Positions 26,893 to 50,734 of a stretch of 64,000 nucleotides of DNA are shown here, in pieces. A model generated the notes under the pieces. That model saw only the letters and a list, made by a program, of their open reading frames with translations, did not search any database and was not told the DNA's origin. Made by a program: the position numbers and the translations under genes. The stretch spans positions 64,001 through 128,000 of the forward strand of contig CAVUWD010000005.1 in the NCBI GenBank assembly GCA_963745025.1, read 5' to 3'. The stretch is from an uncultured delta proteobacterium (GTDB taxonomy: Bacteria > Desulfobacterota > Binatia > JACPRU01). The stretch's first letter is position 1; each line of letters opens with the position of its first letter.

Positions 26893-26920
26893 GGAGCTTC
26901 CTTTCCCGTTCAGCGGAGCG

Positions 26921-28039: not shown

Positions 28040-28058
28040 GGCGGCGCCGGGGGAAAGG

Positions 28059-32158: not shown

Positions 32159-35100
32159 CTACGCACCATCGACTGCGGGCGCTGACACCTCTCCTTCCCA
32201 GTCCACGTCTTCGAGCAGGTACGCGAGCATCCGCGGATCGTCGTTGTCGGGTAGCTCTCGCTTCGGGATCAGCCACCGCGATGCGCGGATGTGGGCGTCG
32301 ATCACGGATGCCGCTTCCGACACCGGAACGCGAATCTCGAACTCTCCCGGCCCGAAGCGGAATTCGCCGGCGGCGCGACCGTCGACGCAGACCTTGAGGG
32401 TCTGCGGGCTGAGCGACGGGTAACATTCGGGAACCCTGACTCGCAGCCGCAAGCCGTGCCCGCGCCGGGGCAAGACGAGGTGCAGGTTCGGCGAGGCCCA
32501 GCGGTCGGAATACCACTGAGCCGCCGAATCCGCCTTGCAGTACCTGGGGATAAACGTTTCGTAGCCGCGCGTCTGGACGAACGCGTCGAAGTACTCGGGA
32601 TCGTGGCGCTGATGCGGCACCCCCGCCCGCAACTCGCCCGCCTGGGTCGCGTCGAAGAACCGGCGCAGCACGGCCTCGGTCTCTTCGACGCTGGCGTCGC
32701 CGCTGCCGCGGAACGAATTCTCCCCGTGTATCCGATGGAAGTAGAGACGATCCGGGACGAACGTCGGGCTGGTGTATCGCAGGGCCGTCAGCAGGAAATC
32801 CCAATCGTAGCACAGGCGCAGATCGCGGAAGCCGCCGACCAGGTCGAACAGCTCGCGGCGGAAGAACAGGTTTCCCGTGGACAGCGCGACGTTGAAATCG
32901 AGCAGTGCATATTCGAGCCGCGGATATCGCAGGGCTTCATCGACTTTCGCCCGTAGACGATCCGCGTAGGGATCGCCTGGCGAGATCGCCGAGCCTTCCG
33001 CATCCACCAGATCCACCCCCGAGAACGACAGCGAGGAATCCGATCCGTCGAGCGCTCGGTGAAGCCGCGCGAGCCGCTCGGGATGATAAGAATCGTCCGA
33101 GTTCAGCACCGCGATGAAATCGCCCGCCGCGCTCTCCACGGCGCGATTGAGCGCCGCGGCGGGCCCCGCGTTGTGCTGCGCGACGATCTCCACCGGCAGC
33201 TTCGGGTTGCGCTCCGCAAACGACTTCGACAGCGCGAGAGTCGCATCGCTCGACCCGTCGTCGACGACCACGATCTCGAAATCGGACCACGTCTGGCGCA
33301 GCACCGATTCGAGCGCAAAGGAGACGTACGCCGCGTGATTGTAGGCCGGCACGACGACGGAGATCGCAGGGCGCGGCTTCCCGTACCGCCGCGACCGCGC
33401 CGTCACCTTGCGCAATGCCGCGGCGGTCGCGTTCAGGTACGCATAGCCGTAGCGCTTGTCCGGCTCGAGATGCGCTCCCTCGGCCCATTCGTTCCACGAG
33501 TTGACGAACACCAGCCGCCGGCTCGGCGGCTGATGCGCGACGGCGTCCTCGCATGCGCTCTGCAGCCATTGCTGATAGAGCCGCGGGCTGGCGCCCACGT
33601 ACACGTTGCCCAGTGCGCCGCGCCGCGGCGTGTTGTCCCAACCCGGCATGACGGCGCGGAACAACGGATACGCTTCTGGCCTCGATTGCATCTTGTCGAG
33701 CACGACGTCTTCGTAGTGGTACGCCGATCCCTCGTATCGCGGGTTCAGCAGCGCGAGCGAACCCGAGACCTGGCTCGCGCTCGTGCCGTGCGGCGGGAAC
33801 TCCACGGCGGCGTCGAATCCGAGCGGCACGGGGTCTTTCAGGCCGAAGGTCTGCGCGGCGACCAGGAACAGATCCCCGATGCCCGACTGGCGGCAATGAT
33901 GCCGCCAGCGCTCCACGGTGTCGCGCGGCTCGGGCAAGATGTCCGCTCGATAGACGACGAGCAGCGGCCTGCCCTCCACGCGGATGTAGCGCGGATCGCG
34001 GAAGATCGCCTCCACGTCGCGGATGAACGCGAAGTCGCTCTCGGGCGAATGCTCCTGGCCGAGCAGCAACTCCTGCTCCGCGCCGTCCCACCGTCGCGTC
34101 CAGTTCTCGTTCGCCCAGCAGATGCAGAACGGGCGATCGAGCCGCGGATTGTCGAGGAGCTGGCGCAGCGGGCGGTCGAGAAGCTTTCTGCCGTTGAACC
34201 AATAATAGTGATAACAGAACGCGTACACGCCGTAGTGCGTGGCGAGCTCCAACTGGCGGGCCTGGATCTCCTCACCGACCCGCAGATCGTAGAAGCCGAG
34301 CTCGCCCGGCAAGTGAGGCTGATAGTGGCCGACGAACTGCGGCTTCGCGCGCGTGACGTTGGTCCACTCAGTGAATCCCTTTCCCCACCATTCGTTGTTC
34401 TCGGGGATGGGATGAAACTGCGGCAGATAGAACGCGATCAGGCGCACCGTCGTCTCGCCGACCGCCGTCGCGGAGATGGGTTGATAGTCGGCGGAGGCTT
34501 CGGCGTAGAGCTCGCGCACCAGGTCCGCGTCGAGCAGATCGCGATCCGCATGGGCTGCGCCGGTGGCGGACCGGGGACGAGACGCTTCGCGGACAGCGGT
34601 CGACGGCTGCGGATCCGAGCGCGCTTGCGGCGGCGGGCCCAGCGCTTCCGAGATCGGCGCCGCAGCGGAGCCGGGGTCCGGCGTGGAGGGCGCGCCTCCG
34701 TTGCGGTCGAGGAACTTCGCCGCCGATCCCTTGAGGGCGCCGTAGAGAGCGCGGAGCGCGCTGCCCTCTGGGGCGACCCGGTCGAGGCGGCGTCGCAAGG
34801 ACTCGAGCGCCTGCCACCCCGCGGTGCCGCGGAACACGGACAGCTGCTCGTCGAGCCGAGCAACGATCCGTCCCCGCTCCTCGGCGCGCTCGATCTCCTC
34901 TTCGAGGCGGCGCGCCAGCTCGAGCCGCTCTCGCTCCGTCTCGTCGAGCCGGCGCTCGAGGATCCGCTGCCTGGTGTCGAGCATCGTGCGGACCTGCGTC
35001 AGCTCCCATCGCGCCCTCGCAGCGTCTCGCGCAGATTCACCAAGCCGCATCTCGAGCATTCGCCGCTTGTTGTCGCGGTTCGACCGCAGCTGCTCGACCT

Positions 35101-35938
35101 GGCGCCCGGGGTCGGCGAGCTCCAGCGCGCGCTCGCCGAGCCGTCGCTCGAGCTGCGAGACGTGCCCCTGATACCGCGCTGCGAGCAGCGATTCGGCGCG
35201 GCTCGCGCTGGGCAGCGCGGCGACGACGAAGAACTGATACGTGGTCGCCAGCGGGTCGCTTCGCAGCTCGGCCACCAGTTGCTCGGGGTATTTCGTGAGG
35301 TCGAGGCGCGTCTCGGTCTGATCGATGCCGCGCACGATGCGCGTCTGGCTTTGGATGGAGTACCCGGCGTCGCGGAACAAGCTCTGCACCGCCGTTTCGT
35401 CGAAGAAGCGGATGTGATCGCGGTCGAGAAGCCCGGTGTCCGTGTAGCGAAATGCGCCGGACAGAAGCGCGAGCCGCACCGCCCCGTGGGCGACGTTCGG
35501 GATCGACGCGAGGAGCCGCGCCTGCGGCGCCAGCACCGCCGCCAGCCGTCGCAGCACCTCGCCCGGATTGCGCAGATGCTCGAGGACGTCCAACGCCAGG
35601 ACGACGTCGAACCGTTCCGGGAAAGCCGCCGCGAAATCGAACGACTCGAGATCGGCGACGACGACCCTCTGGCAATGCGGCCGTGCGACGTCCGCGGCGG
35701 CCGGGTCGGCGTCCACCCCCCACACCGAGCAGCCCCGCGCCGCGAGAGCCGACGCGACGACGCCCGGCCCGCAGCCGACGTCCAGCACCTTGCTGCCGAC
35801 CGGGACGCTCAGCACGGCCAGGGTATGCGCGTTGTTGAGGTCGTTCAGGTTCAGCGGGACGAGGTATCGCAGCGCCGAAGCCTTGTCCGCACTGCCCGTC
35901 TGCTCGGCGCGCCGTTTTCGTACAACCGCTGGTTTCAA
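32159..35938 (-). CDS. Multidomain glycan enzyme: SAM methyltransferase, coiled coil, WbsX/GH99-like glycosyltransferase, GT2 and a C-terminal beta domain
   Basis: VLDVGCGPG and DVLEHL; heptad-rich E/R/L segment; IAFYLPQFHPIPENNEWWGKGFTEW...NSWNEWAEGAHLEPD; ISVVVPAYNH...VVDDGSSD. Confidence 0.9.
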   Translation of the reverse strand: MKPAVVRKRRAEQTGSADKASALRYLVPLNLNDLNNAHTLAVLSVPVGSKVLDVGCGPGVVASALAARGCSVWGVDADPAAADVARPHCQRVVVADLESFDFAAAFPERFDVVLALDVLEHLRNPGEVLRRLAAVLAPQARLLASIPNVAHGAVRLALLSGAFRYTDTGLLDRDHIRFFDETAVQSLFRDAGYSIQSQTRIVRGIDQTETRLDLTKYPEQLVAELRSDPLATTYQFFVVAALPSASRAESLLAARYQGHVSQLERRLGERALELADPGRQVEQLRSNRDNKRRMLEMRLGESARDAARARWELTQVRTMLDTRQRILERRLDETERERLELARRLEEEIERAEERGRIVARLDEQLSVFRGTAGWQALESLRRRLDRVAPEGSALRALYGALKGSAAKFLDRNGGAPSTPDPGSAAAPISEALGPPPQARSDPQPSTAVREASRPRSATGAAHADRDLLDADLVRELYAEASADYQPISATAVGETTVRLIAFYLPQFHPIPENNEWWGKGFTEWTNVTRAKPQFVGHYQPHLPGELGFYDLRVGEEIQARQLELATHYGVYAFCYHYYWFNGRKLLDRPLRQLLDNPRLDRPFCICWANENWTRRWDGAEQELLLGQEHSPESDFAFIRDVEAIFRDPRYIRVEGRPLLVVYRADILPEPRDTVERWRHHCRQSGIGDLFLVAAQTFGLKDPVPLGFDAAVEFPPHGTSASQVSGSLALLNPRYEGSAYHYEDVVLDKMQSRPEAYPLFRAVMPGWDNTPRRGALGNVYVGASPRLYQQWLQSACEDAVAHQPPSRRLVFVNSWNEWAEGAHLEPDKRYGYAYLNATAAALRKVTARSRRYGKPRPAISVVVPAYNHAAYVSFALESVLRQTWSDFEIVVVDDGSSDATLALSKSFAERNPKLPVEIVAQHNAGPAAALNRAVESAAGDFIAVLNSDDSYHPERLARLHRALDGSDSSLSFSGVDLVDAEGSAISPGDPYADRLRAKVDEALRYPRLEYALLDFNVALSTGNLFFRRELFDLVGGFRDLRLCYDWDFLLTALRYTSPTFVPDRLYFHRIHGENSFRGSGDASVEETEAVLRRFFDATQAGELRAGVPHQRHDPEYFDAFVQTRGYETFIPRYCKADSAAQWYSDRWASPNLHLVLPRRGHGLRLRVRVPECYPSLSPQTLKVCVDGRAAGEFRFGPGEFEIRVPVSEAASVIDAHIRASRWLIPKRELPDNDDPRMLAYLLEDVDWEGEVSAPAVDGA

Positions 35939-36130
35939 TACCGATGGCTCCGGCCGAGGATGCGACGAAACGTTGCCATCTTCCCGCGCTCCTGTAAAGG
36001 GCGCCCGTCGGTGCGCTGCGAGGGCGCGCGACTCAGGAAGCGATGAACAAGCGGCGGTTCTCCGCTTCCCGGTTGAGGACGAGGGCAGTGCGCCTCTGCG
36101 ACTCGCAGCGCGCGAGCAAGCTCGACCACA

Positions 36131-36265
36131 CTAGAGCTCCCGGTGGCCGAGCCGGCGGACGCGAAGGCAGAAGGCGACGTCTTCGTCGCCGTTGAAGTAG
36201 AGCGGGTCGAATCCACCGCAGCGCTCGAAGATCTCGCTCTTCGTCAGCAGGCATGCCCACGTTTC
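36131..36265 (-). pseudogene. Internal fragment of a GT2 glycosyltransferase
   Basis: Manual translation: WACLLTKSEIFERCGGFDPLYFNGDEDVAFCLRVRRLGHREL*. Confidence 0.65.
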
Positions 36266-36295
36266 ATCCTTCAGGGTGCGTATGCGAATCCAAAC

Positions 36296-36560
36296 TCAGA
36301 AGTCGATGGCCAATCCGATGAGCGGGCCCCGGAACTGGAGGTCGATATTTGCCGCGCCCTTCGACTTGTTGAAGTCGAGCAGGCGGTAACCCGCCGCCAG
36401 GTGGAGGGTGGTGTTCTTGGGCTTCCAGGGGCAGCTCTACTGGAAGGCCGAACTATATCCCAGCAGAAGTCGGATCCCGTCTGGAAGGGAGCCGCGTCGC
36501 CGCGGAAGGACCAATCGGCCTTGTCGAAGAGGTTCAAGGTGATGCGCCCGCCGTGGATGG
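36296..36560 (-). pseudogene. C-terminal fragment of an outer-membrane beta-barrel protein
   Basis: Ends LHLAAGYRLLDFNKSKGAANIDLQFRGPLIGLAIDF* with a terminal Phe. Frameshift and stop upstream, no start. Confidence 0.55.
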
Positions 36561-36827
36561 CCGTTTCAAAGCCCCTCTCCCTTGGGGCTATCGTCGCAGC
36601 GCGGGCCTCGATGGCAACGGCTCGCGACGTTGCAGCGACAACGGCTCGCCGACTCGCTCGCGCGGAATCTCGAACGACTCGGATTGAAGCGCCGACCGAA
36701 GCAGCTTCCGACGTTGCCGTCGTCGGAGACCCGCGGTCGTAACGTCGCCTGCGTCAGGTGCTTGCGGGTACGGCGGCCGTAAAAGCGACGAGTTTCCTGT
36801 CTTAAGCGGCACTGGTACAATTGCCCC

Positions 36828-39524
36828 ATGACGCGTCGCGACGGTTGCGAGGTGCTGAGCTTCCGGGCGCGAGGGCTCTACCCGAACCTGCGGTGCATGC
36901 TCGCCAGCCTGTCCGAGCAGAGTCGACGGCGCCCCGCAGACGGTAAGTTGCCCGGCGACGTGGCGTCCGTGGTCGAGTGCACGGTTCGTGAGGATGGCCG
37001 CACGCGGAGCATCGAGCTGCCCGTAGGCGCTGCCGACCTGCTCGCGTTGCGCCACTCCGATCAGCCCGCCGCGCTTCACCACCTCTCCCTCATCCTCCGT
37101 GCCCAAAAGGGGGACGAGGCCAGCCGGAATGAGCTCCAAAGCATTGCCCAGAAGCGGTTTCGCAAGCTGCAGGATCGCCTCGACCGCCTCGAGCAGTTGG
37201 ATGACCGGTATCTGATCTTATCCAGCGACCAGCAGCAGTACCCCTCCGAAACGGCGAGCCACAAAGGGTCGATGCTGCTCCGGCTCAGCCAGCAGGGGTA
37301 TCCGGTTCCGGATTTCGTCATCCTCACCGCCGATGCCTATCCAGAGAGCGAGCAGCGCCTGAAGCAGCACGTCACCCGCGCCGTCGAAGCGCTCGAAGGC
37401 CTAGTCGGGCGTCGGCTCGGAGCACCGACGGAGCCCCTTGTGCTCGCCATGCGCTGCGCAATGCCTCAGTACTACCCAGGCTTGATGCCGACCTACCTCA
37501 ACGTGGGCATCACGGAGAGGACGCTGCCTGGCCTGGAGAGCCTTTTTGGCCGTCGTGCGTCCAATATGATGTACCTGAATAACCTCAAGAACCTTCTCGT
37601 CGCCTTGGGCGAGGAGACAGGCACGGTCCTCCGCAAAGCGGACGAGACGCCACCTGAGGACGCGGAGGAGTTCCTCGTCCGGCGCGTCGAAGAGGCATCG
37701 GCGAGGGTGCGCAAGCACGATCCCCGATTGCTTCAGGACGGATTCCATCAGGTTGCCTTCCTCGCTTTGGAGGCCTACCGCAACTTCGAGAGCAACGCCG
37801 ATCTCGTGGCCACCCTTTCGCGCGGCACGATCCAACGCCCGGCGATCATCATGCAAATGATGGTCTGCTCGGTCAGGGAAGAGAGGTCCTATGTGGGTGT
37901 GCTTTACAGCCGCAACCCGATGACCGGCTCAGGGTGCGAGATCGAGACCGCGATGGGGACCTTCGGGGAAGACATCATGACGGGGTCGGTGGAGACGACG
38001 CGGACCGACTTCGATGGTCCCGAGGAGATCCGCGAGGCTTTCCCTTCCGTGTTCAGCTTCATGCCCCTCGTACCCAAGCTGGAGCAGGAGTTTCAGTTCC
38101 CGGTCACCATCGAGTTTGCGGCCGAGGCCGGCGCCTACACCGAGCTCTTCGCGCTCCTCCAGCTCAACCAGACCGGCATGACCGGCCGCGCTGCCTTCAT
38201 CTCGGCAGTGGATCTTCACAAGGCCGGTACCATCTCCCGGAAGCGCATCCTCGAGCTGATCCAGCCGTACCACGTCAAGCAGATCGAGTCCGACACCATC
38301 GATACCCGCTCCTTCCAGGATCTCTACCGCTTCGGCGACGGCATCTCGATTCTCCCTCGCGCCGCCATCTGTGCCCGCGTTTACTTCTCTGCCGAGGAAG
38401 CCCTGAACGCCAAGCGGCGGGGCGAGAGCGTCTGTTTCTGCAAGCCGACATTCGCGCCCACCGACACCGTCGTCATGCAGGAGGTCGACGCCATCCTCAG
38501 CCTGAGCGCCGCCGCCATCCACGTGGTCACGATCTGCCAGAGCTTCGGCACCCCGGCCCTCTTGAACCTGGAGCGGGATGGCATCGCGTTGAAGCCCGAG
38601 CGATGCCTTGTCAACGCCGACGGGGTGGAGATCCACGAGGGAGACTTCGTGACCATCTCGTCGCGCCGGCAGGCGTTATTCAAAGGCAAGGCTCGGTTCG
38701 AGCCCGCCCGCTTCATCCGCTACCTGCAGGGCGAGGAGCCTGAGCTTACCGAGGCGGAGCGGAAGGCCTTCGAGGACATGGCCTATGCCTACCGCTACTA
38801 TTTCAAGCTCGTCAGTACACTCAGGCAGGAGCAGGTGACGAGCTTGTGGGAGCTCATCCGCCTGGTCAACCTCGAACTCCGCGGCAAAGAGGAGGAAGCC
38901 CGACAGTTCGTGCGGGCGTGGTGCGATAGTCACGAGCAGTTCTACGTCGACGAGGTGCTGCGCAGCGAGCTCGGCGATCACCTCAATCAGCACAGAGTGT
39001 TCGAGATGCTGACCGTGGATCAGAAGATCCGCTTCTTCGCCAAAGCTCTGGATCGTTGCGAGCGCGAGAAGATGTTCGGCTACGCCGCCGGCGCCTTCAT
39101 GCTTGGACGGTTCATCTCGACTCCCCTGCCGGTTGCCTTCTGGCGCTCATTCGGGCCAAGCAAGACCGCTCTCCTGCTGAACGAGTGGCTGCTTTTCGAG
39201 AAGTACATGCACGTGCTGCACAGCGTGGGCGAGCGGAAAATCAACCGCGCCCGGAAGCGCATCCTCAGCGAAGGGCTGCCCGAGATCCAGTTGGCACCGC
39301 CGGCGTTGACGGTGCTTGTCCCTTTGAAGCTGGCGGCAGCCGACATCACGTCTGTTCGCAAGTCGGTTCCCCAGTGGTGCGACCCGCAGCTCCCCAAGCT
39401 CCTGGACCTTCTCGAGAGGCCCTACAAGGCGTTCTTCGACTTCAAGGCGCCCTGGTCGCGCGGTAAGCTGGAGGCCATCTGCGACGAGGCCGGCCTCAAG
39501 ATGCCCGGCCCAGACGACCGGTAG
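36828..39524 (+). CDS. Divergent PPDK-like protein: ATP-grasp domain, phospho-His swivel domain and an unknown C-terminal domain, lacking the pyruvate-binding TIM barrel
   Basis: HKGSML...GYPVPDF, PLVLAMRCAMP..PGLMPTYLNVG, GVLYSRNPMTG, FGEDIMTG, IEFA, AIHVVTICQSFGTPAL and EGDFVTIS align with the PPDK N-terminal and central domains. Confidence 0.85.
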   Translation: MTRRDGCEVLSFRARGLYPNLRCMLASLSEQSRRRPADGKLPGDVASVVECTVREDGRTRSIELPVGAADLLALRHSDQPAALHHLSLILRAQKGDEASRNELQSIAQKRFRKLQDRLDRLEQLDDRYLILSSDQQQYPSETASHKGSMLLRLSQQGYPVPDFVILTADAYPESEQRLKQHVTRAVEALEGLVGRRLGAPTEPLVLAMRCAMPQYYPGLMPTYLNVGITERTLPGLESLFGRRASNMMYLNNLKNLLVALGEETGTVLRKADETPPEDAEEFLVRRVEEASARVRKHDPRLLQDGFHQVAFLALEAYRNFESNADLVATLSRGTIQRPAIIMQMMVCSVREERSYVGVLYSRNPMTGSGCEIETAMGTFGEDIMTGSVETTRTDFDGPEEIREAFPSVFSFMPLVPKLEQEFQFPVTIEFAAEAGAYTELFALLQLNQTGMTGRAAFISAVDLHKAGTISRKRILELIQPYHVKQIESDTIDTRSFQDLYRFGDGISILPRAAICARVYFSAEEALNAKRRGESVCFCKPTFAPTDTVVMQEVDAILSLSAAAIHVVTICQSFGTPALLNLERDGIALKPERCLVNADGVEIHEGDFVTISSRRQALFKGKARFEPARFIRYLQGEEPELTEAERKAFEDMAYAYRYYFKLVSTLRQEQVTSLWELIRLVNLELRGKEEEARQFVRAWCDSHEQFYVDEVLRSELGDHLNQHRVFEMLTVDQKIRFFAKALDRCEREKMFGYAAGAFMLGRFISTPLPVAFWRSFGPSKTALLLNEWLLFEKYMHVLHSVGERKINRARKRILSEGLPEIQLAPPALTVLVPLKLAAADITSVRKSVPQWCDPQLPKLLDLLERPYKAFFDFKAPWSRGKLEAICDEAGLKMPGPDDR

Positions 39525-39533
39525 GTCGCGACG

Positions 39534-41972
39534 TCAGCTGTTGCGTGAGGACTGCTCGGGAGCGGCCTGATCATTGCCGCCGTACAGGAACCCGCGGTCC
39601 ACCTTGGGCTCCAGCTCGCCGAGTACGTCAGGGAGCTCCCCGCCTCCCCGTGCCGCCAACAGCCGGCCCATGGCGAGGGAGACGGAGAGAACCGCATTCA
39701 TTCCCAGGTTCGCCTTGCGCTGCATGACGGCGATCCGCTCCGCCACGGGCGCGTCGCGCGCGATCTTGCCGCGCTTGACTGCCAGATCCAGCTCCAACTC
39801 GAGAAGCTGACGATCGATGTGGACAAGGCTCTTGAACTCCGAGATGCGCTTTCCCATGAAGCGCGGTGCAATGACCTCCTCGACATTGGCCACGGCGTTG
39901 AGACAGCCCTTGCCGTCGTAACGCTTCGCCCTCATCCACAGCCCCGCCAGCTCGTCGTCGTTCTTCGCCGATATCGACTCCGCCCGGAGCCCGTCCCGGA
40001 AGTGGTAGACCTTCTCGGCCTCGTCATAGCGGAAGAGTTCGGGGTACTTCCGCGTGATGGGGCCGGCCTCGATCATGCTGTCGACGAGGTGGATGGCCTC
40101 GTCGGTTCCCGCCGAGGTCCCGAGGGGCGTCGCCGCCGTGAACTTGGTGCCGTTGTCGAGCCGGACGACTACCCCGACGGTAGGAATCCCCGCGTTGGTG
40201 GGCTCCTCATGGGCGCTGATGTCGCTGATGATGAGGTCGCCAGGCAGCCCCCGCGATGAGCGCACACCCTTCTCGGCCATGTGGATCAACTCCACGATGC
40301 GACCGTACTTGATGAGCCGCTCGGTGTTGCTGCCGCCTCCGCACTTGAGCCCGAGCGCGCCCACCGCGAAGGCGATGTCGGCTTCCATGACCTCGTTGGG
40401 CGATTTGGATCGATGGGAGACTACAAGCGCGAGGCCGTGCTCCTTGGCGGCGCGGGTGGCCAGCAGCGTCTCGCTGAGCGTGCCGATCTGGTTCGCCTTG
40501 ATGAGGGCGGTGTTGATGAGCCCCTCTTCGGCAGCGTGGATTATGGACGTGTCCTTGGTGGTGACGAGGTCGTCGCCGATGATCAGGATCTCATCGTCCA
40601 GCTCGGCCATGAGGCGCTTCCAGCCCTCGGGGTCGTCCTCGGAGAAGGCATCCTCCAAGGAGACGATGGGGTACTCGCGTATCCATCGCTTGTAAAGGTC
40701 CAGGAGTTCGTCGGTCGTCATCACCCGGGGATCCTCGGCGCGCCAGAAGAGGTACTTCCCGATGGACTCCTTCTCTCCGGTCTCCTCGCGGTAGGCCAGG
40801 CTGAGCTCACTGGCGGCCGGGTCGAGCGCCAGGCAGACATCGCGGTCGGGAACGAAGCCACACTCCTCGATGGCCTGCACCGCCACTTTGAGGGCGCGCT
40901 CCTCGGGGATGAGATCGCCCACACGGCGGGCGTAGGATGCGACGACGCCTCCTTCAAGACCGACGCCCACGAAGTTGAGCCCTTCCGAGTCCTGGATGAT
41001 CTGAATGACCCGGCTCTGGAGCGCGTTGGTCACGCGCTGGGCCTCGATGTAGTCCCTGGCTGTGAGGGGGATGAACATCAGCTCCTGGAAGCTGAGGTTG
41101 CCGCCCATGTCCTCCGTGTGTCTCCCGCCCATGATGGAGTTCCTGAACTCCCATGGCGCGAATACGAGCCTGCCATCGGGCAGCTCGACCTCCTGGAGGC
41201 GGTGGATCTGGAGCTTGCGCTTGATGCGCACAGACAGGGCGGTGTCGCGCAGCGTCTCCGAATCACCTCCGCTCTTCGCGGCTATCTCATGCACGGCCTT
41301 GGCCTTGCGGGCTGCCTCTCCCTGTCGCTCGCGAAACGCCCTGTACTTGCCTGGATCCGCAAGCAGGAAGTCGAACAACGCCACCGCGCCTACGGTGAAG
41401 AGCAGGCGTCCCCCAACTACCATGGGTTCGATATTCCCCATGCGGCCGAAGGCCATGAGGGCGACACCGGAGGGGAAAGCGGCCAACGCCAGCCACTTGC
41501 TGGCGTTGGGGCCGGCGGCCGAGACGGCGAGGTTCTGGGCTTTTACGGCCGGATGGTAGCTGCCAGCCTCCTTGGTGACTCCCATGGCGGCGCCCCAGGG
41601 TATCTTGAGGAACAGCTCGAGATAGAAGAGCCACCTGGCCCAGAACCCCTCCGCCATCCTGGCTTGGGCCGGGCCCAGGAACTCGGGGCGGAGGTTGTTG
41701 GTGCGCACGGCCGCGAGGTAGTGACCCATCTCATGGAGCGCAATGTTGGCATGCCAGGCCGCGTACCAGATGGCGGCTGAGATGACCACCTCAATGCTGA
41801 AGAACATCTGCCGGGCGACATCCGCCCGCGAGCTGATCGACTCCGAGATGCTCAGTAGAGAGGTGAGAAATGCCGCGTGAAAGGAGACCAGCTTGTGGTT
41901 GGCGATGACCCAACCCCGGTCCAGCCGCGGCCAGCCCCCTTCCTCATGGCTCTGAGAAGCAAACAAGTTCAC
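39534..41972 (-). CDS. Membrane HExxH (M50-like) domain fused to a circularly permuted enolase
   Basis: HEMGH and SAAGP in the TM region, then the enolase barrel (GGRH, QELM, LEGG, LDPAASE, SLED, GDDL, IKANQIG, SHRS, LKCG), then the enolase N-domain (GIPTV, PLGTSAG.DEA, RYDGKG, LGMNAVLSVSLA). Confidence 0.9.
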   Translation of the reverse strand: MNLFASQSHEEGGWPRLDRGWVIANHKLVSFHAAFLTSLLSISESISSRADVARQMFFSIEVVISAAIWYAAWHANIALHEMGHYLAAVRTNNLRPEFLGPAQARMAEGFWARWLFYLELFLKIPWGAAMGVTKEAGSYHPAVKAQNLAVSAAGPNASKWLALAAFPSGVALMAFGRMGNIEPMVVGGRLLFTVGAVALFDFLLADPGKYRAFRERQGEAARKAKAVHEIAAKSGGDSETLRDTALSVRIKRKLQIHRLQEVELPDGRLVFAPWEFRNSIMGGRHTEDMGGNLSFQELMFIPLTARDYIEAQRVTNALQSRVIQIIQDSEGLNFVGVGLEGGVVASYARRVGDLIPEERALKVAVQAIEECGFVPDRDVCLALDPAASELSLAYREETGEKESIGKYLFWRAEDPRVMTTDELLDLYKRWIREYPIVSLEDAFSEDDPEGWKRLMAELDDEILIIGDDLVTTKDTSIIHAAEEGLINTALIKANQIGTLSETLLATRAAKEHGLALVVSHRSKSPNEVMEADIAFAVGALGLKCGGGSNTERLIKYGRIVELIHMAEKGVRSSRGLPGDLIISDISAHEEPTNAGIPTVGVVVRLDNGTKFTAATPLGTSAGTDEAIHLVDSMIEAGPITRKYPELFRYDEAEKVYHFRDGLRAESISAKNDDELAGLWMRAKRYDGKGCLNAVANVEEVIAPRFMGKRISEFKSLVHIDRQLLELELDLAVKRGKIARDAPVAERIAVMQRKANLGMNAVLSVSLAMGRLLAARGGGELPDVLGELEPKVDRGFLYGGNDQAAPEQSSRNS

Positions 41973-42178
41973 CGGCGCAGCAAGGTCGTCAGGTCAGACG
42001 CCGGGGAGCCTAGCAGAAGCGAACGAGGTGCGTCAAAATAGCCCCCGTGCGACTGTTTGCGTTCTGGATCCAGCCCGGCGTCATCGCTCAACTGATGCAG
42101 TCGGGAGATTCGTAGCAAATACCAAATATCACAGCGCAGAGCCGGCTTTGCTTATCTGCGGCAAGTGGAATTGTCCCG

Positions 42179-42310
42179 GAGGTGGTGCGTGTGCTCACCG
42201 CGCTGCAACCACTGCAGGTGTCGCCGGAGACGCCCGTGTTCACCAATACCACCGGAGATCCGATCGAGCCGAAGGCGTTCTCGCGGCACTGGTACGACTG
42301 CTTGCGGGGG
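42179..42310 (+). mobile_element. Probable tyrosine integrase remnant
   Basis: VRVLTALQPLQVSPETPVFTNTTGDPIEPKAFSRHWYDCLR resembles the segment preceding box II of phage integrases, then breaks off. Recognised from memory only. Confidence 0.5.
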
Positions 42311-42482
42311 GATAGATCCTTTCTCCCCATCATCCCCATCATCCCGAGCCGGTTGACGAGCGCCTCATGCACCCCGTAAAAGCGGGCGTTACGTGGGGGA
42401 GATGGGATTGGGTGAGCGTCTGCCAACGCAGGTTCTGTAGCTTTCGGCCCCTCTAGCCATGCATGAGCGCCAGCGCGCAACG

Positions 42483-43505
42483 ATGAACGCCGCAGCGGCG
42501 ATCACCCTCGTGGTCGTCGGATCGTCAGCCTGTGCGGTGCCGTCCGGCGGGGGTCGCGGCGGGCCCCCGGCGGCCACCGCCGTCGTCGCCACCATTCCGC
42601 TCAGCAACTACGGTACCGACGTGGCGGTGCGTCCCGACGGCACGCGCGCCTACGTGCCGCTTCAGACCGGCAGTGTCCTCGCCCTCGACCTAACCAGCAG
42701 GCAGGTCGCCAGTACGATCACGACGGACGGGCGACCTTCCGCGATCGCCCTCACCAGCGACGGCGCGCACGCCTACGTGACGGACTTGACCGCTCAGTCC
42801 CTCTTCGTGCTCGACACGACCAACGACAGCCTGGCCAAGAGCATATCGATCGGAACGATCGCGCGGCCGACCCGGACGCCGGCGGTGGCGGTCAGCCGTG
42901 ACGGCCGGTGGGCATATGTTACCAACGCCACGGTCATGGACGACCATCTCCTCGTCATCGACACCGCGACCAACACCGTCGTAGGCAACCATTCCCTGGA
43001 CGTCCATCCCGTGGGAATCGCGGTGAGCCCGGACGGACGGCGCCTGTACGTCGCCGGGTGCAAGTTGTCGTGCGTCGACGGCGCCCTGCTCGTCCTCGAC
43101 GCGGCGAGCGCCAACGTCGTCTCCAGTATCCCTCTGCAGGCGGCTCCCGCCGGCTTCGTCCTGGCCCCCGACGGCTCTCGTGCGTACGCCTCGACCGGGC
43201 TTTCGGGAACGGTTCTGGCCATCGATCTCACCACCGGCACCGTCACGACGATCCCCGTCGACGCCGAGCCTCTCGGCGTTGCCATCGACCCGCGCGGCGT
43301 CTTCGTTTACGTGACCTGCTACGGCGCGAGCGACGTAGCCGTCATTGACACCCGCACGAACACGGTGGTCTCGACGGTCCCCGTGGCCAATGAACCGCGG
43401 GCGATCGCCGTGAGCCCCGATGGCCGGCTTGCCTACGTGACGCACTCTTCACCGACCTGTTCGGTGATCGACCTGCAGCGCGTCACGGGAGGCCCCGGCA
43501 CGTGA
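42483..43505 (+). CDS. YVTN/YncE-type beta-propeller repeat lipoprotein
   Basis: Seven repeats like AVSPDGRRLYV and AYVTN...VIDTATNTVV. Lipobox-like SSAC. Confidence 0.9.
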   Translation: MNAAAAITLVVVGSSACAVPSGGGRGGPPAATAVVATIPLSNYGTDVAVRPDGTRAYVPLQTGSVLALDLTSRQVASTITTDGRPSAIALTSDGAHAYVTDLTAQSLFVLDTTNDSLAKSISIGTIARPTRTPAVAVSRDGRWAYVTNATVMDDHLLVIDTATNTVVGNHSLDVHPVGIAVSPDGRRLYVAGCKLSCVDGALLVLDAASANVVSSIPLQAAPAGFVLAPDGSRAYASTGLSGTVLAIDLTTGTVTTIPVDAEPLGVAIDPRGVFVYVTCYGASDVAVIDTRTNTVVSTVPVANEPRAIAVSPDGRLAYVTHSSPTCSVIDLQRVTGGPGT

Positions 43506-44378: not shown

Positions 44379-44575
44379 CCGTAAAAACGGACGTTCCGAG
44401 GCATCACAAAACGGCCAAAACGGCGGCGGTCCAACGGGTCGCCTCTTGGCGTCTTGTCCGGTCTGCCTACTCGGTAGGACCGGTCTACCTGCCTGTGATA
44501 ACAACGTCGTCGCTAGCCCGAGTGCGGCGGCGCAGCGCGCAGTCGACAAAACCAAATCAAGAGGAAGGATCTCAT

Positions 44576-47079
44576 ATGAACGCAGTCAAGCAGGTCGTCG
44601 CGATAGCGCTTTCAGGTGTCGCGTTTGCGCTTCCTTCCTCATCCTGCATCGCGCAGCAAGTTACCGGTGAGTTGGGTTCGCCCAGCGCCACCACCACGAT
44701 CAGCGGAAAACAACTTCCGCCGCCCGATCCGAAGTTCGGCGGGGTGATCAAGGAGAAGGCCTCGGAGTCGAAGGCGTGGTGGCCGCCGCGCGTCGTGCCG
44801 CCGAAGGGCGCGCCCAACGTGCTGCTCATCATGACGGACGATGCCGGGTTCGGCGCGCCGAGCACGTTCGGCGGCGTCGTCCCGACCCCGGCCTTGGATC
44901 GCATCGCGAACAACGGGCTGCGGTACACGCAGTTTCACTCCACGTCGCTGTGCTCACCGACGCGGGCGGCGTTGATCACCGGACGCAACCATCACGTGGC
45001 CGGCTTTGGGGTCGTGGGCGAAGCGGCGACGGGGTTCCCGGGTTACGACTCGATCATCAGGAAGGATACCGGCACGATCGGCACGATCCTGAAGGAGAAC
45101 GGGTACGCGACCTCGTGGTTCGGCAAGGACCACAACACGCCCTTCTACCTGGCGAGCCAGGCCGGGCCGTTCGATCAATGGCCCATCGGGATGGGCTTCG
45201 AGTATTTCTACGGGTTCGTCGGCGGCGACACCAGCCAGTGGCAACCGAACCTGTTCCGCAACACGACCGCCATCTATCCCTTCCAGGGGAATCCCGGCTG
45301 GAATCTGACCACGGCGATGGCCGATGACGCGATCCAGTACATGAAGCAGCTCAAGGAGATCGCGCCCGACAAACCGTTCTTTGTCTATTACGTACCGGGC
45401 GGCACACACGCGCCGCATCATCCGACGCCGGAGTGGATCAAGAAGATCAGCGACATGCACCTGTTCGACGGCGGCTGGAACAAACTGCGCGAGACCATCT
45501 TCGCCAACCAGAAACGGCTCGGCATCATGCCCGCCGATGCCAAGCTGACGCCGTGGCCGAAGGATCTGCCGGAGTGGGATTCGCTCAGTTGGGACGAGAA
45601 GAAGCTCTTCATCAAGCAAGCCGACGTCTACGGGGCGTACCTCGCGTACACCGACCACGAGATCGGCCGGGTGATCCAGGCCGTCGAAGACCTGGGCGAA
45701 CTCGACAACACGCTTGATCATCTACATCAGCGGCGACAACGGCGCGAGCGCCGAAGGCATGCTCAACGGGACACCGAACGAGTTCACCACCTTCAATGGT
45801 GTTCCCGTGCCGGTCAAGGATCAGTTTCTCTGGTACGAGTTCTGGGGATCGGAACGGACCTTTCCGCACTTTGCGGCGGGCTGGGCGTGGGCGATGGACA
45901 CGCCGTTCAAGTGGACCAAGCAGGTGGCGTCGCATTTCGGCGGGACGGCCCAGGGCGTTGGCCATGTCCTGGCCCGGCCACATCAAGGACGTGGGCGGCA
46001 TCCGCAACCAGTTCCACCACGTCATCGATATCGTGCCGACGATCCTCGAAGCGACCGGCGTCTCTGCGCCCGAAACGATCGACGGCATCAGGCAGCGCCC
46101 GATCGAAGGCGTGAGCATGGCGTACACGTGGGACAAGGCGAACGCCAACGCGCCCACCAAACACACCACGCAGTACTTCGAGATGCTCGGCAATCGCGCC
46201 ATCTATCACGACGGTTGGGTGGCGGCGACGACCCCGGTGACCATCCCGTGGGAACTGAACACCGCCACGCCTCCGGACGTGATCACCGGCTACAAGTGGG
46301 AGCTCTACAACATCAAAGAGGACGTCACCGAGGCCAACGATCTCGCGGCCAAGATGCCGGACAAGCTCAAGCAAATGCAGGACGTCTTCTACGCCGAGGC
46401 GAAGAAGTACGACGTGCTGCCGCTCGACAACTCGACGCTCGCGCGCTTCCTCACGCCTCGTCCGAGCGCAACTGCGGGACGGAAGGTCTTCACGTATTCG
46501 GGCGAATTGACCGGCGTGCCGGCCAGCGCCGCCCCGAACATCCTGGACAAGTCCTACACCATCACCGCCGAGGTCGAGATTCCCGAGGGCGGCGCGGAAG
46601 GCATGATCGTCACCGAGGGCGGTCGCTTCGGCGGCTACGGCCTGTTCCTGAGCAAGGGCGAGTTCGGAATCGGCCGCGGCAAGGTGGTGTTTCTCTACAA
46701 CCTGCTCGATCTCAAGCGGACGGCCTGGGAAGGGCCGGAGCTGAGCGCCGGCAAGCACACCATCGTGTTCGACTTCAAGTTCGACGGCCCCGGTCTCGGC
46801 AAGGGCGGCACGGGCGTGCTGTCCGTGGACGGCAAGGAAGTGGCCAAGAACTCCATGGAGCACACCACCCCCATCATGTTCCCCGAAGACGAAGACTTCG
46901 ACGTCGGGCAAGACACGCGCACCCCGTTGGCGCTCATCGAGTATCGCTACGATTGTCCGTTCAAGTTCACGGGCAAGATCGACAAGCTGACCTTCGACCT
47001 CGGCCCGGCGCAGTACACGGAAGCGGAGCGCAAGCAACTTCCGGTCATTGCCGACCGGGTCGCCCGCGCGAAGGACTGA
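44576..47079 (+). CDS. Secreted arylsulfatase with a C-terminal LamG-like extension; two compensating frameshifts at about 45715 and 45960
   Basis: MTDDAGF, formylglycine motif CSPTRAALITGR, FGKDH and ISGDNG. Signal peptide. Confidence 0.9.
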
Positions 47080-47263: not shown

Positions 47264-48202
47264 ATGACTATGAGTTCGCACACGCCAGCGGCCGAGCTCA
47301 AAGGGACCGTATTCGACATCGAGCGCTGTGCGATCTACGACGGACCGGGCATCCGAACGCTCGTCTTCCTGAAGGGATGTCCGCTTCGCTGCCTCTGGTG
47401 TGCGAATCCCGAATCCCAGCGTCGCGCCCCGGAGCTCATGTTCCACGAGAAGGATTGCACTCCGTGCGGGCGATGCATCCCCGCGTGTCCCGAACACGCG
47501 CTCTCGATCGGACCGGACGAAGCGTTCTCGATCGAATGGGCGCGCTGCACGAATTGCGGTGCCTGCTGCGACGTCTGCCCGCCGCGCGCCCTTCGCATGG
47601 CCGGCAGGGAGATGACCGTCGGCGAAGTCGTCGAGGAGATCGAGAAGGACCGGCTGTTCTACCGCCGCTCCGGCGGAGGCGTGACGCTCGGCGGAGGCGA
47701 GCCGACCCTCCAGGCGGCTTTCGCGGCCGCGCTCCTCCGGGAGCTCCGGCGCCGCTTCCTCGACACGGCGATCGAGACGTGCGGCTACGCGCGGCCCGAG
47801 GCGCTGCTGAGTGTCGTCGAGCACTGCGACCTCGTCTACTTCGACGTCAAGTTCCTGGATCCCGAGACGCACGCCGCGCTGACGGGCGTCCGGAACGAGC
47901 TCATCCTCGAAAACCTCGAACGGGTCGCGGAGCGGACGTCCGTCGTCGTTCGGATCCCGGTCGTCCCCGGCTGCACGGACCCGGACCTCAACATCCGCCG
48001 GACGACCGAGCTCGTCGCCCGCCTCGGTCCGAACGTCCAGCGGATCGAGCTCCTGCCGTATCACAATTTTGGCGAGCCGAAGTACCGGCGGCTCGGCCGT
48101 CCGTATCCCTTGCCCGATACCGTCCGCCCGGACGGCGATCGGCTCCTCGATCTCCGCCACATCGTCGAAGGCTACGGTGTCAGGGCAGCGGTCGGTCACT
48201 GA
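47264..48202 (+). CDS. Glycyl radical enzyme activating enzyme (radical SAM with a ferredoxin insert)
   Basis: DGPGIRTLVFLKGCPLRCLWCANPE, two CxxCxxCxxxC motifs and GGGEP. Confidence 0.95.
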   Translation: MTMSSHTPAAELKGTVFDIERCAIYDGPGIRTLVFLKGCPLRCLWCANPESQRRAPELMFHEKDCTPCGRCIPACPEHALSIGPDEAFSIEWARCTNCGACCDVCPPRALRMAGREMTVGEVVEEIEKDRLFYRRSGGGVTLGGGEPTLQAAFAAALLRELRRRFLDTAIETCGYARPEALLSVVEHCDLVYFDVKFLDPETHAALTGVRNELILENLERVAERTSVVVRIPVVPGCTDPDLNIRRTTELVARLGPNVQRIELLPYHNFGEPKYRRLGRPYPLPDTVRPDGDRLLDLRHIVEGYGVRAAVGH

Positions 48203-48232
48203 CGCCGCTCCCCCCAGAAAGCGAGGTCCCCG

Positions 48233-50734
48233 ATGGCAGCACCAATGCGCGCTCTCCGCTCTCCGGCTCGTGCGACGTCGCCCGAGGAATGTTTCGAGAT
48301 GCAACCGACGGACCGCGTCCGGCGCCTCCGGGAGGCGTTCTTCACCTACAAGCCAACCGTCGAGCTCGAGCGCATGCGTATCGTCACCCGGATCTTCCGG
48401 GAGACCGAAGGCGAGCCGATGGTCTTCCGCCGCGCGAAAGCGTTCGCCGCGGTAATCGAGGCGATTCCGGCGCGAATCTTTCCGGACGAGCTCATCGTCG
48501 GCTTCCAGGCGAGCCGGCCGCGGGGCAACAGCGTCTACGTCGATCAGGGAGGCGGCTGGTACGAAGCCGAGCTCGCGACCCTCTCGACGAGGCAGTGGGA
48601 CCAGTTCGCGATCTCGGACGAAGAGCGGCGCGAGCTCGAAGAGGAGATCTTCCCCTACTGGAAAGGGACCGGGCGGTACGAGAAGACCGTCGACGGGCGG
48701 ATCGCCCAGATGCTCGCCGCATACCCGGAGACGAACGAGCTTCTCCACGCCGATCCGCGGGCATACCCGACGTTCGGCGCCGGGTTGATCGACGTCGACG
48801 CCATTCGCGTCATGCACATCGGCCACCTCTCGGTCGACTATCCGAAGGTGCTCCGGAAGGGGTTCGCCGGCATTCTCAAGGACGTCGAAGCGCGGATCGC
48901 CCGCTCCGACCCCGCGAATCCCGACGACCTCTCGAAGCTGCCGTTCCTCCGGGCCGTCGCCCAGGCGATGGAGGCTGCCGCGGGAATCGGCGCGCGCTTC
49001 GCGATGGCCGCCCGCGACATGCTCCGCGTGACGCCCGACCCCGCGCGGCGGCGCGACCTCGAGACGATCGCCGAGGTGTGCGAGCGCGTGCCCGCCCATC
49101 CGGCGCGCACGTTCCACGAGGCGCTGCAGGCGCTCTGGTTCACGCAGATCCTCCTCAAGTACGAAGCGAACGCGGATGCGCTCTCGCCGGGGCGCATCGA
49201 TCAGTATCTCTACCCGTATTACGAGGAAGACCTCCGCCAGGGGCGGCTCACGAAGGAGGAAGCGCAGGAGCTCGCGGACTGTCTCTTCTTGAAGTTCGCG
49301 ACCGTCGTCGATCTCTGGCCGACGAATGCCTGCCGGTTCTACGCGGGCTTCCCGGTCACCCAGCAGGTGAACGTCGGCGGGGTGACCCGGAACGGCAGCG
49401 ACGCGACGAACGACCTCTCGTACCTCTTCATCGAGGCGATGATGCACACGCGCCTCCAGCAACCGACGTTCTCGGTCCGGGTGCACGACGGGAGCCCCGA
49501 ACGGTTTCTCCTGAAGGCCGCGGAGCTGACGGCGCTCGGCACCGGGCATCCGTCGTATTTCAACGACGAGGTCGTCATTCCCTCGCTGATGGCGCGGACG
49601 ACGCTCGGCGGCCCCGCCGTTTCGCTCGAGGCCGCGCGCGACTACGCGATGATCGGCTGCGTCGAGCCGATGCTCGCGGGGATGGACGCGGGGTACAGCA
49701 ACGGCGGCATCCTGAACCTCGCCGGCGCCATGGAGCTGGCGCTGACCAACGGCGTTCATCGGGCGACGGGAAGAAAGGTCGGCGCCGACAGCGGGGATCC
49801 GCGCTCGTTCTCCTCGTTCGGGGACGTGCAGGAGGCGTTCGCGAAGCAGGTGCGATGGTTCGTGAGGCACCTGGCGATCGCCGACAACCTGTGCGAGCTC
49901 GCGCAGGCAGAGCTTTATCCGACGGTATATCTCTCGGCGCTCCTCGACGACTGCATCGAAGCCGGAATCACCCGCGAGGCGGGCGGAGCCCGGTACAACT
50001 TCGGACCCTGCCCACTCGCCGTCGGGGTGGCGGATTGTGGCGATTCGCTCGCGGCGATCCGGAAGGTCGTCTTCGAAGACCGTGCCCTCACGATGTCCGA
50101 GCTCTGCGACGCGCTCGAAAACGACTTCCGGGGTTGCGAAGACGTCCGCCGGTTGCTCCTCGCGGCACCGAAATTCGGCAACGACGACGACGCCGTAGAC
50201 GGTCTCGCCGCTTGGGTCGTCCACGTCTTCGCCGCGGAGATGGTCAAGTACCGGAACACGCGCGGGGGGCATCTCCTGCCGGGCGTGATCCCGGTCTCGG
50301 CCAACGTCCCGCTCGGAATGGTGATCGGCGCGCTGCCGAGCGGGCGAAAGTCGGGCGTGCCGCTGGCGGAGGGTTGCTCACCGTCCCCCGGGATGGACCG
50401 GAAGGGGCCGACGGGCAGCATGAAGTCCGTAAGCAAGATCGACCACGCCGAGGTCTTCGATGGCACGCAGTACAACATGCGGATCGAGCCGTCGGCATTC
50501 CGCGAGACGGCCGGGATCAAGCGGCTCGCCGACCTCGTGCGGACGTTCGTCGATCTCAAGGGATGGCACGTTCAGTTCAACGTCGTGTCGTCCGACACCT
50601 TGCGCGCCGCGCAGAAGGAGCCGGACAAGTATCGCGACATCGTCGTCAAGGTCGCCGGTTACAACGCGTTCTTCGTCGAGCTCGACGAGACGATCCAGAA
50701 CAACATCATCGCTCGGACCGAGCACCTGATCTGA
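48233..50734 (+). CDS. Glycyl radical enzyme of unassigned function (eliminase-like)
   Basis: Cys loop IGCVEP, Gly loop IVVKVAGY and HVQFNVVS. Confidence 0.95.
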   Translation: MAAPMRALRSPARATSPEECFEMQPTDRVRRLREAFFTYKPTVELERMRIVTRIFRETEGEPMVFRRAKAFAAVIEAIPARIFPDELIVGFQASRPRGNSVYVDQGGGWYEAELATLSTRQWDQFAISDEERRELEEEIFPYWKGTGRYEKTVDGRIAQMLAAYPETNELLHADPRAYPTFGAGLIDVDAIRVMHIGHLSVDYPKVLRKGFAGILKDVEARIARSDPANPDDLSKLPFLRAVAQAMEAAAGIGARFAMAARDMLRVTPDPARRRDLETIAEVCERVPAHPARTFHEALQALWFTQILLKYEANADALSPGRIDQYLYPYYEEDLRQGRLTKEEAQELADCLFLKFATVVDLWPTNACRFYAGFPVTQQVNVGGVTRNGSDATNDLSYLFIEAMMHTRLQQPTFSVRVHDGSPERFLLKAAELTALGTGHPSYFNDEVVIPSLMARTTLGGPAVSLEAARDYAMIGCVEPMLAGMDAGYSNGGILNLAGAMELALTNGVHRATGRKVGADSGDPRSFSSFGDVQEAFAKQVRWFVRHLAIADNLCELAQAELYPTVYLSALLDDCIEAGITREAGGARYNFGPCPLAVGVADCGDSLAAIRKVVFEDRALTMSELCDALENDFRGCEDVRRLLLAAPKFGNDDDAVDGLAAWVVHVFAAEMVKYRNTRGGHLLPGVIPVSANVPLGMVIGALPSGRKSGVPLAEGCSPSPGMDRKGPTGSMKSVSKIDHAEVFDGTQYNMRIEPSAFRETAGIKRLADLVRTFVDLKGWHVQFNVVSSDTLRAAQKEPDKYRDIVVKVAGYNAFFVELDETIQNNIIARTEHLI

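Follow-up and report, generated by a model that had tools for sequence, protein, structure and literature searches.

The window analysed here comprises 64,000 nucleotides of contig CAVUWD010000005.1 (GenBank assembly GCA_963745025.1, positions 64,001 to 128,000) from an uncultured delta proteobacterium of the Binatia, and contains two genes lying tail to tail, referred to below as A and B, which are the subject of this report. Gene A (P0001; 36828-39524, + strand) starts with ATG and is open over 898 aa, encoding what appears to be a dikinase derived from pyruvate, phosphate dikinase (PPDK) that lacks the phosphoenolpyruvate (PEP)/pyruvate barrel. Gene B (P0002; 39534-41972, - strand) starts with GTG and is open over 812 aa, encoding an M50-like membrane domain followed by a circularly permuted enolase. 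The stop codon of A (TAG, 39522-39524) and that of B (TCA, reverse strand, 39534-39536) are separated by 9 bp (39525-39533) read directly from the sequence, which confirms the original prediction of two long, intact and convergent open reading frames (ORFs) at this locus. Existing annotations say little about either product: A is mostly named 'hypothetical protein', sometimes 'phosphohistidine swiveling domain-containing protein', B is named 'enolase' or 'hypothetical protein', and the Protein Atlas holds only 'PEP synthase family' or 'hypothetical' clusters for the pair. A full-text search of the published literature, outside subscription journals and supplements, returned no description of a permuted-enolase/dikinase pair.

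The first half of A is recognizably that of a PPDK. Residues 131-500 (37218-38327, + strand) form an ATP-grasp nucleotide-binding domain, identified from the alignment with TIGR01828 (PPDK) and from invariant residues, and are followed by a phosphohistidine swivel domain at residues 501-621 (38328-38690, + strand), in which His565 is encoded by CAC at 38520-38522. The match to TIGR01828 covers only positions 15-514 of 865 and scores 119.2 bits against a cut-off of 843, and the sole Pfam family seen in A is PF01326 (PPDK_N), whose 26 bits fall just short of the cut-off of 27. Aligned by BLASTP with the PPDK of the same genome, A residues 141-621 correspond to PPDK residues 19-537 (E 3e-21) and the alignment ends where the barrel would begin; neither PF02896, the PEP/pyruvate barrel, nor PF00391 was reported in A at E<=0.1. 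His565 aligns with the histidine of the 'TSH' motif of that PPDK, A reading 'SAAAIH' versus 'GGxTSH', and is invariant in 20 A homologues (alignment A2), as are K146, R209, Q343, R362, G380, E381, E429 and Q445; the invariant residues of the ATP-grasp domain match the corresponding motifs of the genome's own PPDK. On these sequence features, A is a plausible dikinase descended from PPDK, with the barrel absent.

PPDK (EC 2.7.9.1, TIGR01828) and PEP synthase thus share with A the order of ATP-grasp and swivel domains and the position of the phospho-acceptor histidine. Where PPDK carries its TIM barrel (PF02896), A possesses an all-helical domain of 277 aa (residues 622-898; 38691-39521, + strand), and a further 130-aa region is added at its N-terminus. 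The AlphaFold2 model of the helical domain (predicted local distance difference test, pLDDT, 88.2) contains 15 helices and no strands. Its 277 residues include 50 invariant columns, many of them charged or aromatic. A Foldseek search of the PDB gave no match at E<=0.001 (best E 0.31), and the wide VIA comparison reached at best Z 7.0, to generic helical-repeat proteins only, so that no family could be assigned. The domain is also rare: an exhaustive profile search of 1.84 billion representatives retrieved no more than 120 clusters, in which near-full-length proteins (822-905 aa) carry it at their C-terminal end; one 1,550-aa match looks like a tandem form. The N-terminal region (residues 1-130; 36828-37217, + strand) has no match in Pfam or NCBIfam and is conserved, R15, G16, Y18, G43 and P47 being nearly invariant. 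As a side observation, the Protein Atlas contains a 759-aa cluster of PPDK_N plus PEP-utilizers architecture with 447 members, reported as commonest in Uroviricota, which suggests that barrel-less dikinases occur in phages too.

Gene B encodes both domains of enolase, in the reverse of the usual order. The TIM barrel comes first (residues 273-562; 40287-41156, - strand) and is matched by PF00113 (Enolase_C) over residues 273-561 at 184.8 bits against a cut-off of 21.5. The capping domain, normally N-terminal, follows it (residues 585-790; 39603-40220, - strand), is interrupted by two insertions and is matched by PF03952 (Enolase_N) best over residues 682-774, at 55.3 bits against a cut-off of 35. 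The genome's own enolase aligns by BLASTP at residues 139-404 with B 273-562 (36% identity) and at residues 51-112 with B 681-766, and positions 1-51 of TIGR01060 match B downstream of the barrel. Since the Pfam coordinates and the BLASTP alignments both place the barrel before the cap, the enolase of B is circularly permuted; its score against the TIGR01060 equivalog, 240.1 bits in three stretches, lies below the 300-bit cut-off. Canonical enolase (EC 4.2.1.11; PF03952 plus PF00113, TIGR01060) is like B in its two domains, in its catalytic, metal-binding and phosphate-binding residues and in its loop serine, but runs from cap to barrel and lacks both the two cap insertions and the 260-aa M50-like membrane domain fused to the N-terminus of B. 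Eleven active-site positions of B (E297, E340, D384, E440, D467, K492, H520, R521, S522, K543 and S620) align with the motifs of the genome's own enolase and are kept in all 78 sequences of a set made of this B and 77 ORFs of at least 700 aa from related loci, shorter ORFs having been dropped. We take these residues to have the catalytic, metal-binding, phosphate-binding and loop-serine roles of their enolase counterparts.

The distribution of B relative to canonical enolase bears directly on its activity. This genome (assembly 92.65% complete, 7.6% contamination) also encodes, on other contigs, canonical forms of both enzymes, the enolase scoring 651 bits (cut-off 300) and the PPDK 1231.6 bits (cut-off 843), so that on the point of whether the host also keeps eno and ppdK the answer is yes for both. 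Canonical eno was likewise present in each of the 11 tested genomes in which B is adjacent or fused to a dikinase. By comparison, 21 genomes, with Planctomycetota-type labels, possess B and no A (those of the more distant groups B and C defined below, WOR-1 excluded); canonical eno was found in only 5 of them, and in the other 16 B is the only enolase found. PGK, used as a control for completeness, was found in 20 of the 21. The presence of sole-enolase genomes that retain PGK, set against the canonical eno of genomes in which a dikinase is attached, indicates that B most likely catalyses the enolase reaction, and that it most likely serves as the housekeeping enzyme in genomes without a dikinase partner and in an accessory capacity where it is linked to a dikinase. 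B is also strongly constrained: it is 72, 72, 77 and 71% identical to the B proteins of four genomes whose canonical enolases are 68, 66.5, 58 and 58% identical, and across the same four genomes A is 47-52% identical.

The N-terminal 260 residues of B (41193-41972, - strand) constitute an M50-like membrane domain, with an HEMGH motif encoded at 41721-41735 and two downstream aspartates, D201 and D206. PF02163 (Peptidase_M50) scores 26.1 bits on whole B (residues 77-239), against a cut-off of 27.2, and 28.1 bits when residues 1-260 are searched alone, and it is matched by 16 of 22 B relatives at E<=0.01. All 78 sequences, across the three groups of relatives, retain H80, E81, H84, D201 and D206. 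The H80-E81-M-G-H84 motif lies within a predicted helix (residues 60-90), and D201 and D206 lie in the helix 182-203 and just past it, either being a candidate for the third zinc ligand, which in M50 proteases is an aspartate of a later membrane helix. The model of the domain is a helical bundle (pLDDT 77.9), and its structural matches include the site-2 protease (S2P) 3b4r_B (Z 6.4, root-mean-square deviation 3.9 over 108 residues) and RseP 7w6z_A (Z 6.3), at ranks 7-8 and tied with unrelated membrane proteins (best Z 7.7). Foldseek gave no match for the domain at E<=0.001, and a profile of alignment A4 gave none among PDB sequences at E<=1. Site-2 proteases of the M50 type (M. jannaschii S2P, 3b4r; RseP, 7w6z) resemble B in having HExxH in one membrane helix and, in a later one, invariant Asp residues; they differ in carrying a PDZ or CBS appendage where B carries a complete enzyme on the cytoplasmic side, and B has in addition an invariant N-terminal helix, GWxIANHKLVSFHAAF.

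Such conservation raises the possibility of metabolite-gated intramembrane proteolysis, in which B would be an active site-2-type protease with its enolase domain serving as a cytoplasmic sensor of 2-phosphoglycerate (2-PG) and PEP, and A would read ATP/AMP and modulate the protease through phosphotransfer from His565; the original prediction had already suggested that His-phosphotransfer might gate the membrane protease. The invariance of HExxH, D201 and D206 throughout the three groups and the Peptidase_M50 matches of most relatives speak for this, as does the appearance of S2P and RseP among the top fold matches with the highest sequence identities of those rows (16% and 14%); known site-2 proteases do bear cytoplasmic or periplasmic regulatory domains, such as CBS in SpoIVFB and PDZ in RseP. 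Nevertheless, we regard proteolysis of this kind as unlikely. In the 16 of 21 B-alone genomes in which B is the sole enolase found, the enolase domain must turn over its substrate; no conserved candidate substrate, such as an anti-sigma factor, lies beside the pair, and no third conserved gene was found in 80 loci; the S2P fold match is no better than that to unrelated membrane proteins; and the profile search of PDB sequences returned nothing.

Relatives of the pair are numerous. At least 949 B homologues of similar length exist, the best 120 listed being 70-100% identical to B, and the nearest relative of the pair as a whole is in a Candidatus Binatia bacterium record, where B is 92% identical. 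A scan of one genome per species yielded 189 relatives among 214 candidate stretches, and 80 loci were kept, all from metagenome-assembled genomes (MAGs). These loci fall into three groups. Group A, with B at least 65% identical to P0002 and labels of Acidobacteriota/Terriglobia, Elusimicrobia, Deltaproteobacteria and Binatia, has A at 51 of 58 loci, or at 51 of 53 once loci with less than 3 kb of DNA downstream are set aside. Group B (B 55-65% identical; Planctomycetota/Phycisphaerae labels) has A at none of 8 loci, and group C (B less than 50% identical; Planctomycetota-type labels and WOR-1) at 1 of 14, that of WOR-1. All 51 paired loci of group A are convergent, with stops -43 to +174 bp apart in 42 of them, often overlapping by 4 or 24 bases, and 481-6,900 bp apart in the remaining 9; this stop-to-stop abutment is kept across several phylum labels. 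Nucleotide similarity to a Desulfurellales-labelled locus (L077) covers exactly both genes (36838-41963). In two records, hits carry consecutive NCBI locus tags (ABIJ96_16455/16460 and VEV41_19735/19740). Among 301 sampled Acidobacteriota genomes B occurs in 6, as a split-type gene in 3 (A adjacent in 3/3) and in fused form in the other 3.

The trees of A and B agree as well. Over 46 pairs, from which loci with incomplete or N-containing ORFs and the second WOR-1 paralogue were dropped, the Mantel correlation is 0.87, a value reached by none of 999 permutations, and the trees have 25 of 43 splits in common. Descent along the species tree would produce such a match for both proteins, which makes it a sign of co-inheritance and not of co-evolution. 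The adjacency and co-occurrence of homologues and the congruence of the two trees had been proposed as tests of the pairing, and both came out in its favour, with 51 of 58 close loci paired and fusion proteins in existence; A and B as a co-inherited module is thus supported. An all-against-all clustering of the ORFs of the 80 loci, with shadow ORFs inside A and B removed, found only lineage-specific neighbours and no third conserved gene.

Several individual loci deserve mention. At the Binatia-labelled locus of the closest relative (L013:10522-17225), A and B are parted by about 6.7 kb containing a canonical 443-aa enolase, a STAND/AAA fragment, a dynamin-family GTPase, DUF6062 and a HEAT-repeat ORF; window positions 39448-39636, the abutting 3' ends, match both sides of this insert, so that 189 bp are duplicated, and the insert may be genuine or a product of misassembly. 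One Terriglobales MAG contains two copies of B on different contigs (L023 and L032), one with A adjacent and the other with no A within 8 kb. Group B loci share a GT1 glycosyltransferase (8/8) and a DHDPS-family gene. At 7 of the 14 group C loci (L082-L087, L091), two phospholipid head-group genes, for a CDP-alcohol phosphatidyltransferase and a phosphatidylserine decarboxylase, are found immediately upstream of B on the opposite strand.

In other uncultured bacteria a dikinase module and B are joined in one polypeptide. B is matched by 284 long proteins, of which the 120 listed measure 1,532-2,360 aa. Four of the six that were scanned consist of an M50-like region, a permuted enolase, some 750 unassigned residues, PPDK_N and PEP-utilizers; the other two are tandem double enolases (P0123 and P0124, of 1,844 and 1,666 aa), with two Enolase_C stretches and no dikinase module. 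The enolase part of the fusions is 48% identical to B over 800 residues, and a hidden Markov model (HMM) built from the ATP-grasp domain of A matches 114 of the 120 listed proteins. These proteins of about 2,000 aa share with the pair the membrane domain and permuted enolase of B and a dikinase module of ATP-grasp and His swivel domains without PEP barrel; they differ in being a single chain, in that their dikinase part ends with the His domain, and in that the N- and C-terminal domains of A are undetected in them. No correspondence between their middle of about 750 aa and the helical domain of A emerged, the HMM of the A C-terminal region matching 0 of the 120. Two different dikinase lineages tied to the same membrane enolase strengthen the case for a functional link, and by the same token imply that A itself is not what has been joined to B in the fusions.

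The one A-bearing locus of group C offers a metabolic context. In the 1.6-Mb WOR-1 genome the gene order is PFOR subunits, eno, tpi, ppdK, A, an A paralogue, B, pgk, a DeoC/LacD-type aldolase, FBPase and iPGM, the pair thus sitting inside a gluconeogenesis cluster. The paralogue (L079/L101-L102, G010 contig C21) is 848 aa long, divergent (30% identical to A) and has a degenerate C-terminal domain; it immediately precedes B, which is encoded on the same strand and is 1,177 aa long there. This context is relevant to the idea that A functions as a dikinase on its own, with a substrate other than PEP, 2-PG or anything related to them (e.g. a cell-envelope or secondary metabolite) bound in its helical domain, and is connected to B only by shared regulation or localisation. 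Dikinases with swapped acceptor domains do exist, rifampicin phosphotransferase and glucan water dikinase being examples in which, as in A, an ATP-grasp domain and a phosphohistidine swivel feed an acceptor domain other than that of PPDK; to our knowledge, an enolase partner is not a feature of either. The helical domain occupies the place of the PPDK acceptor domain, it has many invariant charged and aromatic residues, and A occurs without B in 2 genomes. We nonetheless hold this idea to be doubtful and distinctly improbable, given that a sister clade has independently fused a dikinase module to B, that the stop-to-stop abutment is maintained across several phylum labels, that the setting in WOR-1 is gluconeogenic and that no additional conserved gene lies nearby to provide another pathway.

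Our preferred reading, which we hold tentatively and with somewhat less than even confidence, is that A and B make up a two-enzyme module of the PEP node, chromosomal and conserved, which works as a membrane-tethered shunt with phosphotransfer through His565. B would interconvert 2-PG and PEP at the membrane, tethered there by its site-2-protease/M50-like domain, which keeps a zinc-type HExxH...D site. ATP would charge A on His565 of the swivel domain, and the phosphorylated A would give its phosphoryl group to, or take it from, the three-carbon acid that B makes or consumes. Pyruvate, PEP and 2-PG would thereby be interconverted (pyruvate <-> PEP <-> 2-phosphoglycerate) in a shunt that is tethered to the membrane and runs beside the housekeeping eno and ppdK. 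The acceptor site could lie in the helical domain of A or on the barrel of B; as the swivel of A stands between the ATP-grasp and helical domains, in the topology of PPDK, the helical domain is the favoured candidate for the acceptor site or for a docking platform. While the domain architectures, the conserved catalytic residues, the adjacency, the fusions and the distribution relative to canonical enolase are observed, what is said here of enzymatic activity, of the acceptor, of the direction in which flux runs and of physical contact between the two proteins is inferred.

A number of observations weigh against this shunt. The invariant HExxH...D site of B would have no role in a purely metabolic model and is left unexplained by it. 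The modelled helical domain of A is a solenoid-like fold without a solved relative and not an obvious small-molecule site, which would make it an odd acceptor. Linkage is not obligate, B being found without A at all 8 group B loci and at 13 of the 14 group C loci; in the other direction, A occurs with only a canonical enolase in 2 Acidobacteriota genomes. The C-terminal domain of A was absent from 5 of 5 B-without-A genomes searched, whereas 5 of 5 positive controls were matched, and no insertion or deletion in B was found that separates A-linked from A-free groups. As the original prediction correctly pointed out, the genes are not one operon, their convergent orientation excluding a single transcript and hence the co-transcription of A and B. 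As for the fusions, HMMs of the N-terminal, His and C-terminal regions of A match none of the 120 listed proteins, and their dikinase part is distant from A, only 102 residues being aligned by BLASTP; the fusions may thus be a parallel solution rather than A joined to B. Complex prediction between B residues 250-812 and A residues 495-898 (alignments A1 and A2) gave 0.00 in both runs, the controls not being folded, and speaks neither for nor against binding.

A bolder version of this chemistry would make the permuted enolase barrel the functional replacement for the PEP/pyruvate barrel that is missing from A. The phosphorylated His565 swivel, of A or of the fused module, would then dock on the enolase active site, and a single membrane-bound machine would convert pyruvate and ATP directly into 2-PG, or run in reverse to harvest ATP from 2-PG, with no release of PEP, the conserved intramembrane zinc site coupling this flux to a membrane event. 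We consider such a machine possible, if rather unlikely.

The surroundings of the genes bear on their origin and on the claim, also made initially, that they belong to a decayed island. With a G+C of 0.640 the pair is indeed poorer in G+C than the window as a whole (0.679), the 1-kb bins from 37001 to 43000 ranging over 0.631-0.648; this part of the original prediction stands. The drop, however, sits in codon positions 1 and 2 (G+C 0.64/0.42 and 0.65/0.43 in the two genes), and G+C at third positions (GC3) is 0.84 and 0.85, equal to that of the backbone (0.78-0.91 in the other 31 ORFs that pass the coding filter). The lower G+C therefore stems from amino-acid composition and not from foreign codon usage, and composition gives no sign of a foreign origin for the pair. 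The gene debris supposed to flank it on both sides was not confirmed for its direct surroundings: the immediate neighbours are an intact gene for a 1259-aa methyltransferase-WbsX-GT2 protein (32159-35938, - strand) and an intact gene for a 348-aa beta-propeller protein (42459-43505, + strand). Given these neighbours and this GC3, a decayed island is not supported. An ORF of 199 aa (36143-36742) has no Pfam or PADLOC match and failed the GC3 coding filter.

Only two genes near the pair look broken. A sulfatase, 2.5 kb to the right, is seemingly split over two overlapping frames, 44495-46114 (+ strand; PF00884 positions 1-234 of 301) and 45796-47079 (+ strand; a weak SGSH_C match and coding-like GC3); this 44495-47079 split may be a frameshift or a sequencing error. 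Twelve kb to the right, a 139-aa ORF (53950-54369, - strand) encodes only the terminal stretch of an ABC ATPase domain (PF00005 positions 97-136) and is probably a gene fragment. Further features of the neighbourhood include a bpMoxR-type AAA ATPase and a VWA protein, a MoxR-VWA system (25106-28114, - strand; 9-11 kb from the pair), followed by a gene for a HATPase_c protein with a DUF4325 STAS-like domain (29230-30243, - strand), and, 5 kb from the pair on the other side, a radical-SAM activase with an 833-aa PFL-like glycyl radical enzyme (47264-50734, + strand), a neighbourhood not conserved at other loci. Counts of terminator-like and promoter sites over 35900-42500 are at shuffled expectation. 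In one metatranscriptome library two contigs (263 and 182 nt) fall on gene A (37901-38341) with one mismatch each, for which DNA carry-over is possible; on gene B the matches are stretches of at most 43 nt at a conserved motif, which probably derive from other organisms. The rest of the pair is uncovered in the sequencing runs, which carries no weight either way.

A role in anti-phage defence or dormancy, through the depletion of PEP or ATP by a system carried on a decaying island, had been among the functions first proposed. The accessory status of the pair beside canonical eno and ppdK would fit such a role, as would its patchy distribution (B in 6 of 301 Acidobacteriota genomes) and the MoxR-VWA pair nearby. 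PADLOC-DB 2.0, however, has no family for A, B or seven neighbouring ORFs, nor do the MoxR-VWA and HATPase_c/DUF4325 genes have a PADLOC match. A tblastn search with the two family-specific domains, B 1-260 and A 622-898, found no match in 72,556 plasmids and 50,697 phage records, weak evidence in that these collections are mostly of cultured hosts. A GC3 equal to the backbone, the absence of conserved defence neighbours in 80 loci, the use of B as sole enolase in many Planctomycetota, and a B more conserved than the housekeeping enolase, unlike fast-evolving defence genes, all argue in the same direction, as does the relative lying in a gluconeogenesis cluster. The proposal of a defence system is thus not borne out, and we consider it very improbable.

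Taken together, the evidence points to an enzyme pair of central carbon metabolism and not to a defence system. Enolase and PPDK are familiar from textbooks and very stable in architecture, and the pair departs from them in three respects: a circularly permuted and membrane-anchored enolase, which in many Planctomycetota appears to have taken the place of its canonical counterpart; the conserved zinc-type membrane domain that this enolase carries; and a repeated association, through adjacency or fusion, with a dikinase whose own substrate barrel has been lost. The hosts belong to abundant uncultured lineages of soil, sediment and groundwater (labels Acidobacteriota, Elusimicrobiota, Binatia and Planctomycetota), in which the pair matters for genome annotation and metabolic models, given the 'enolase' and 'hypothetical protein' names under which it is recorded. 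If the pair does channel phosphoryl groups between ATP and pyruvate, PEP and 2-PG, it would represent a new route in central carbon metabolism and a new example of the re-targeting of a dikinase swivel domain.

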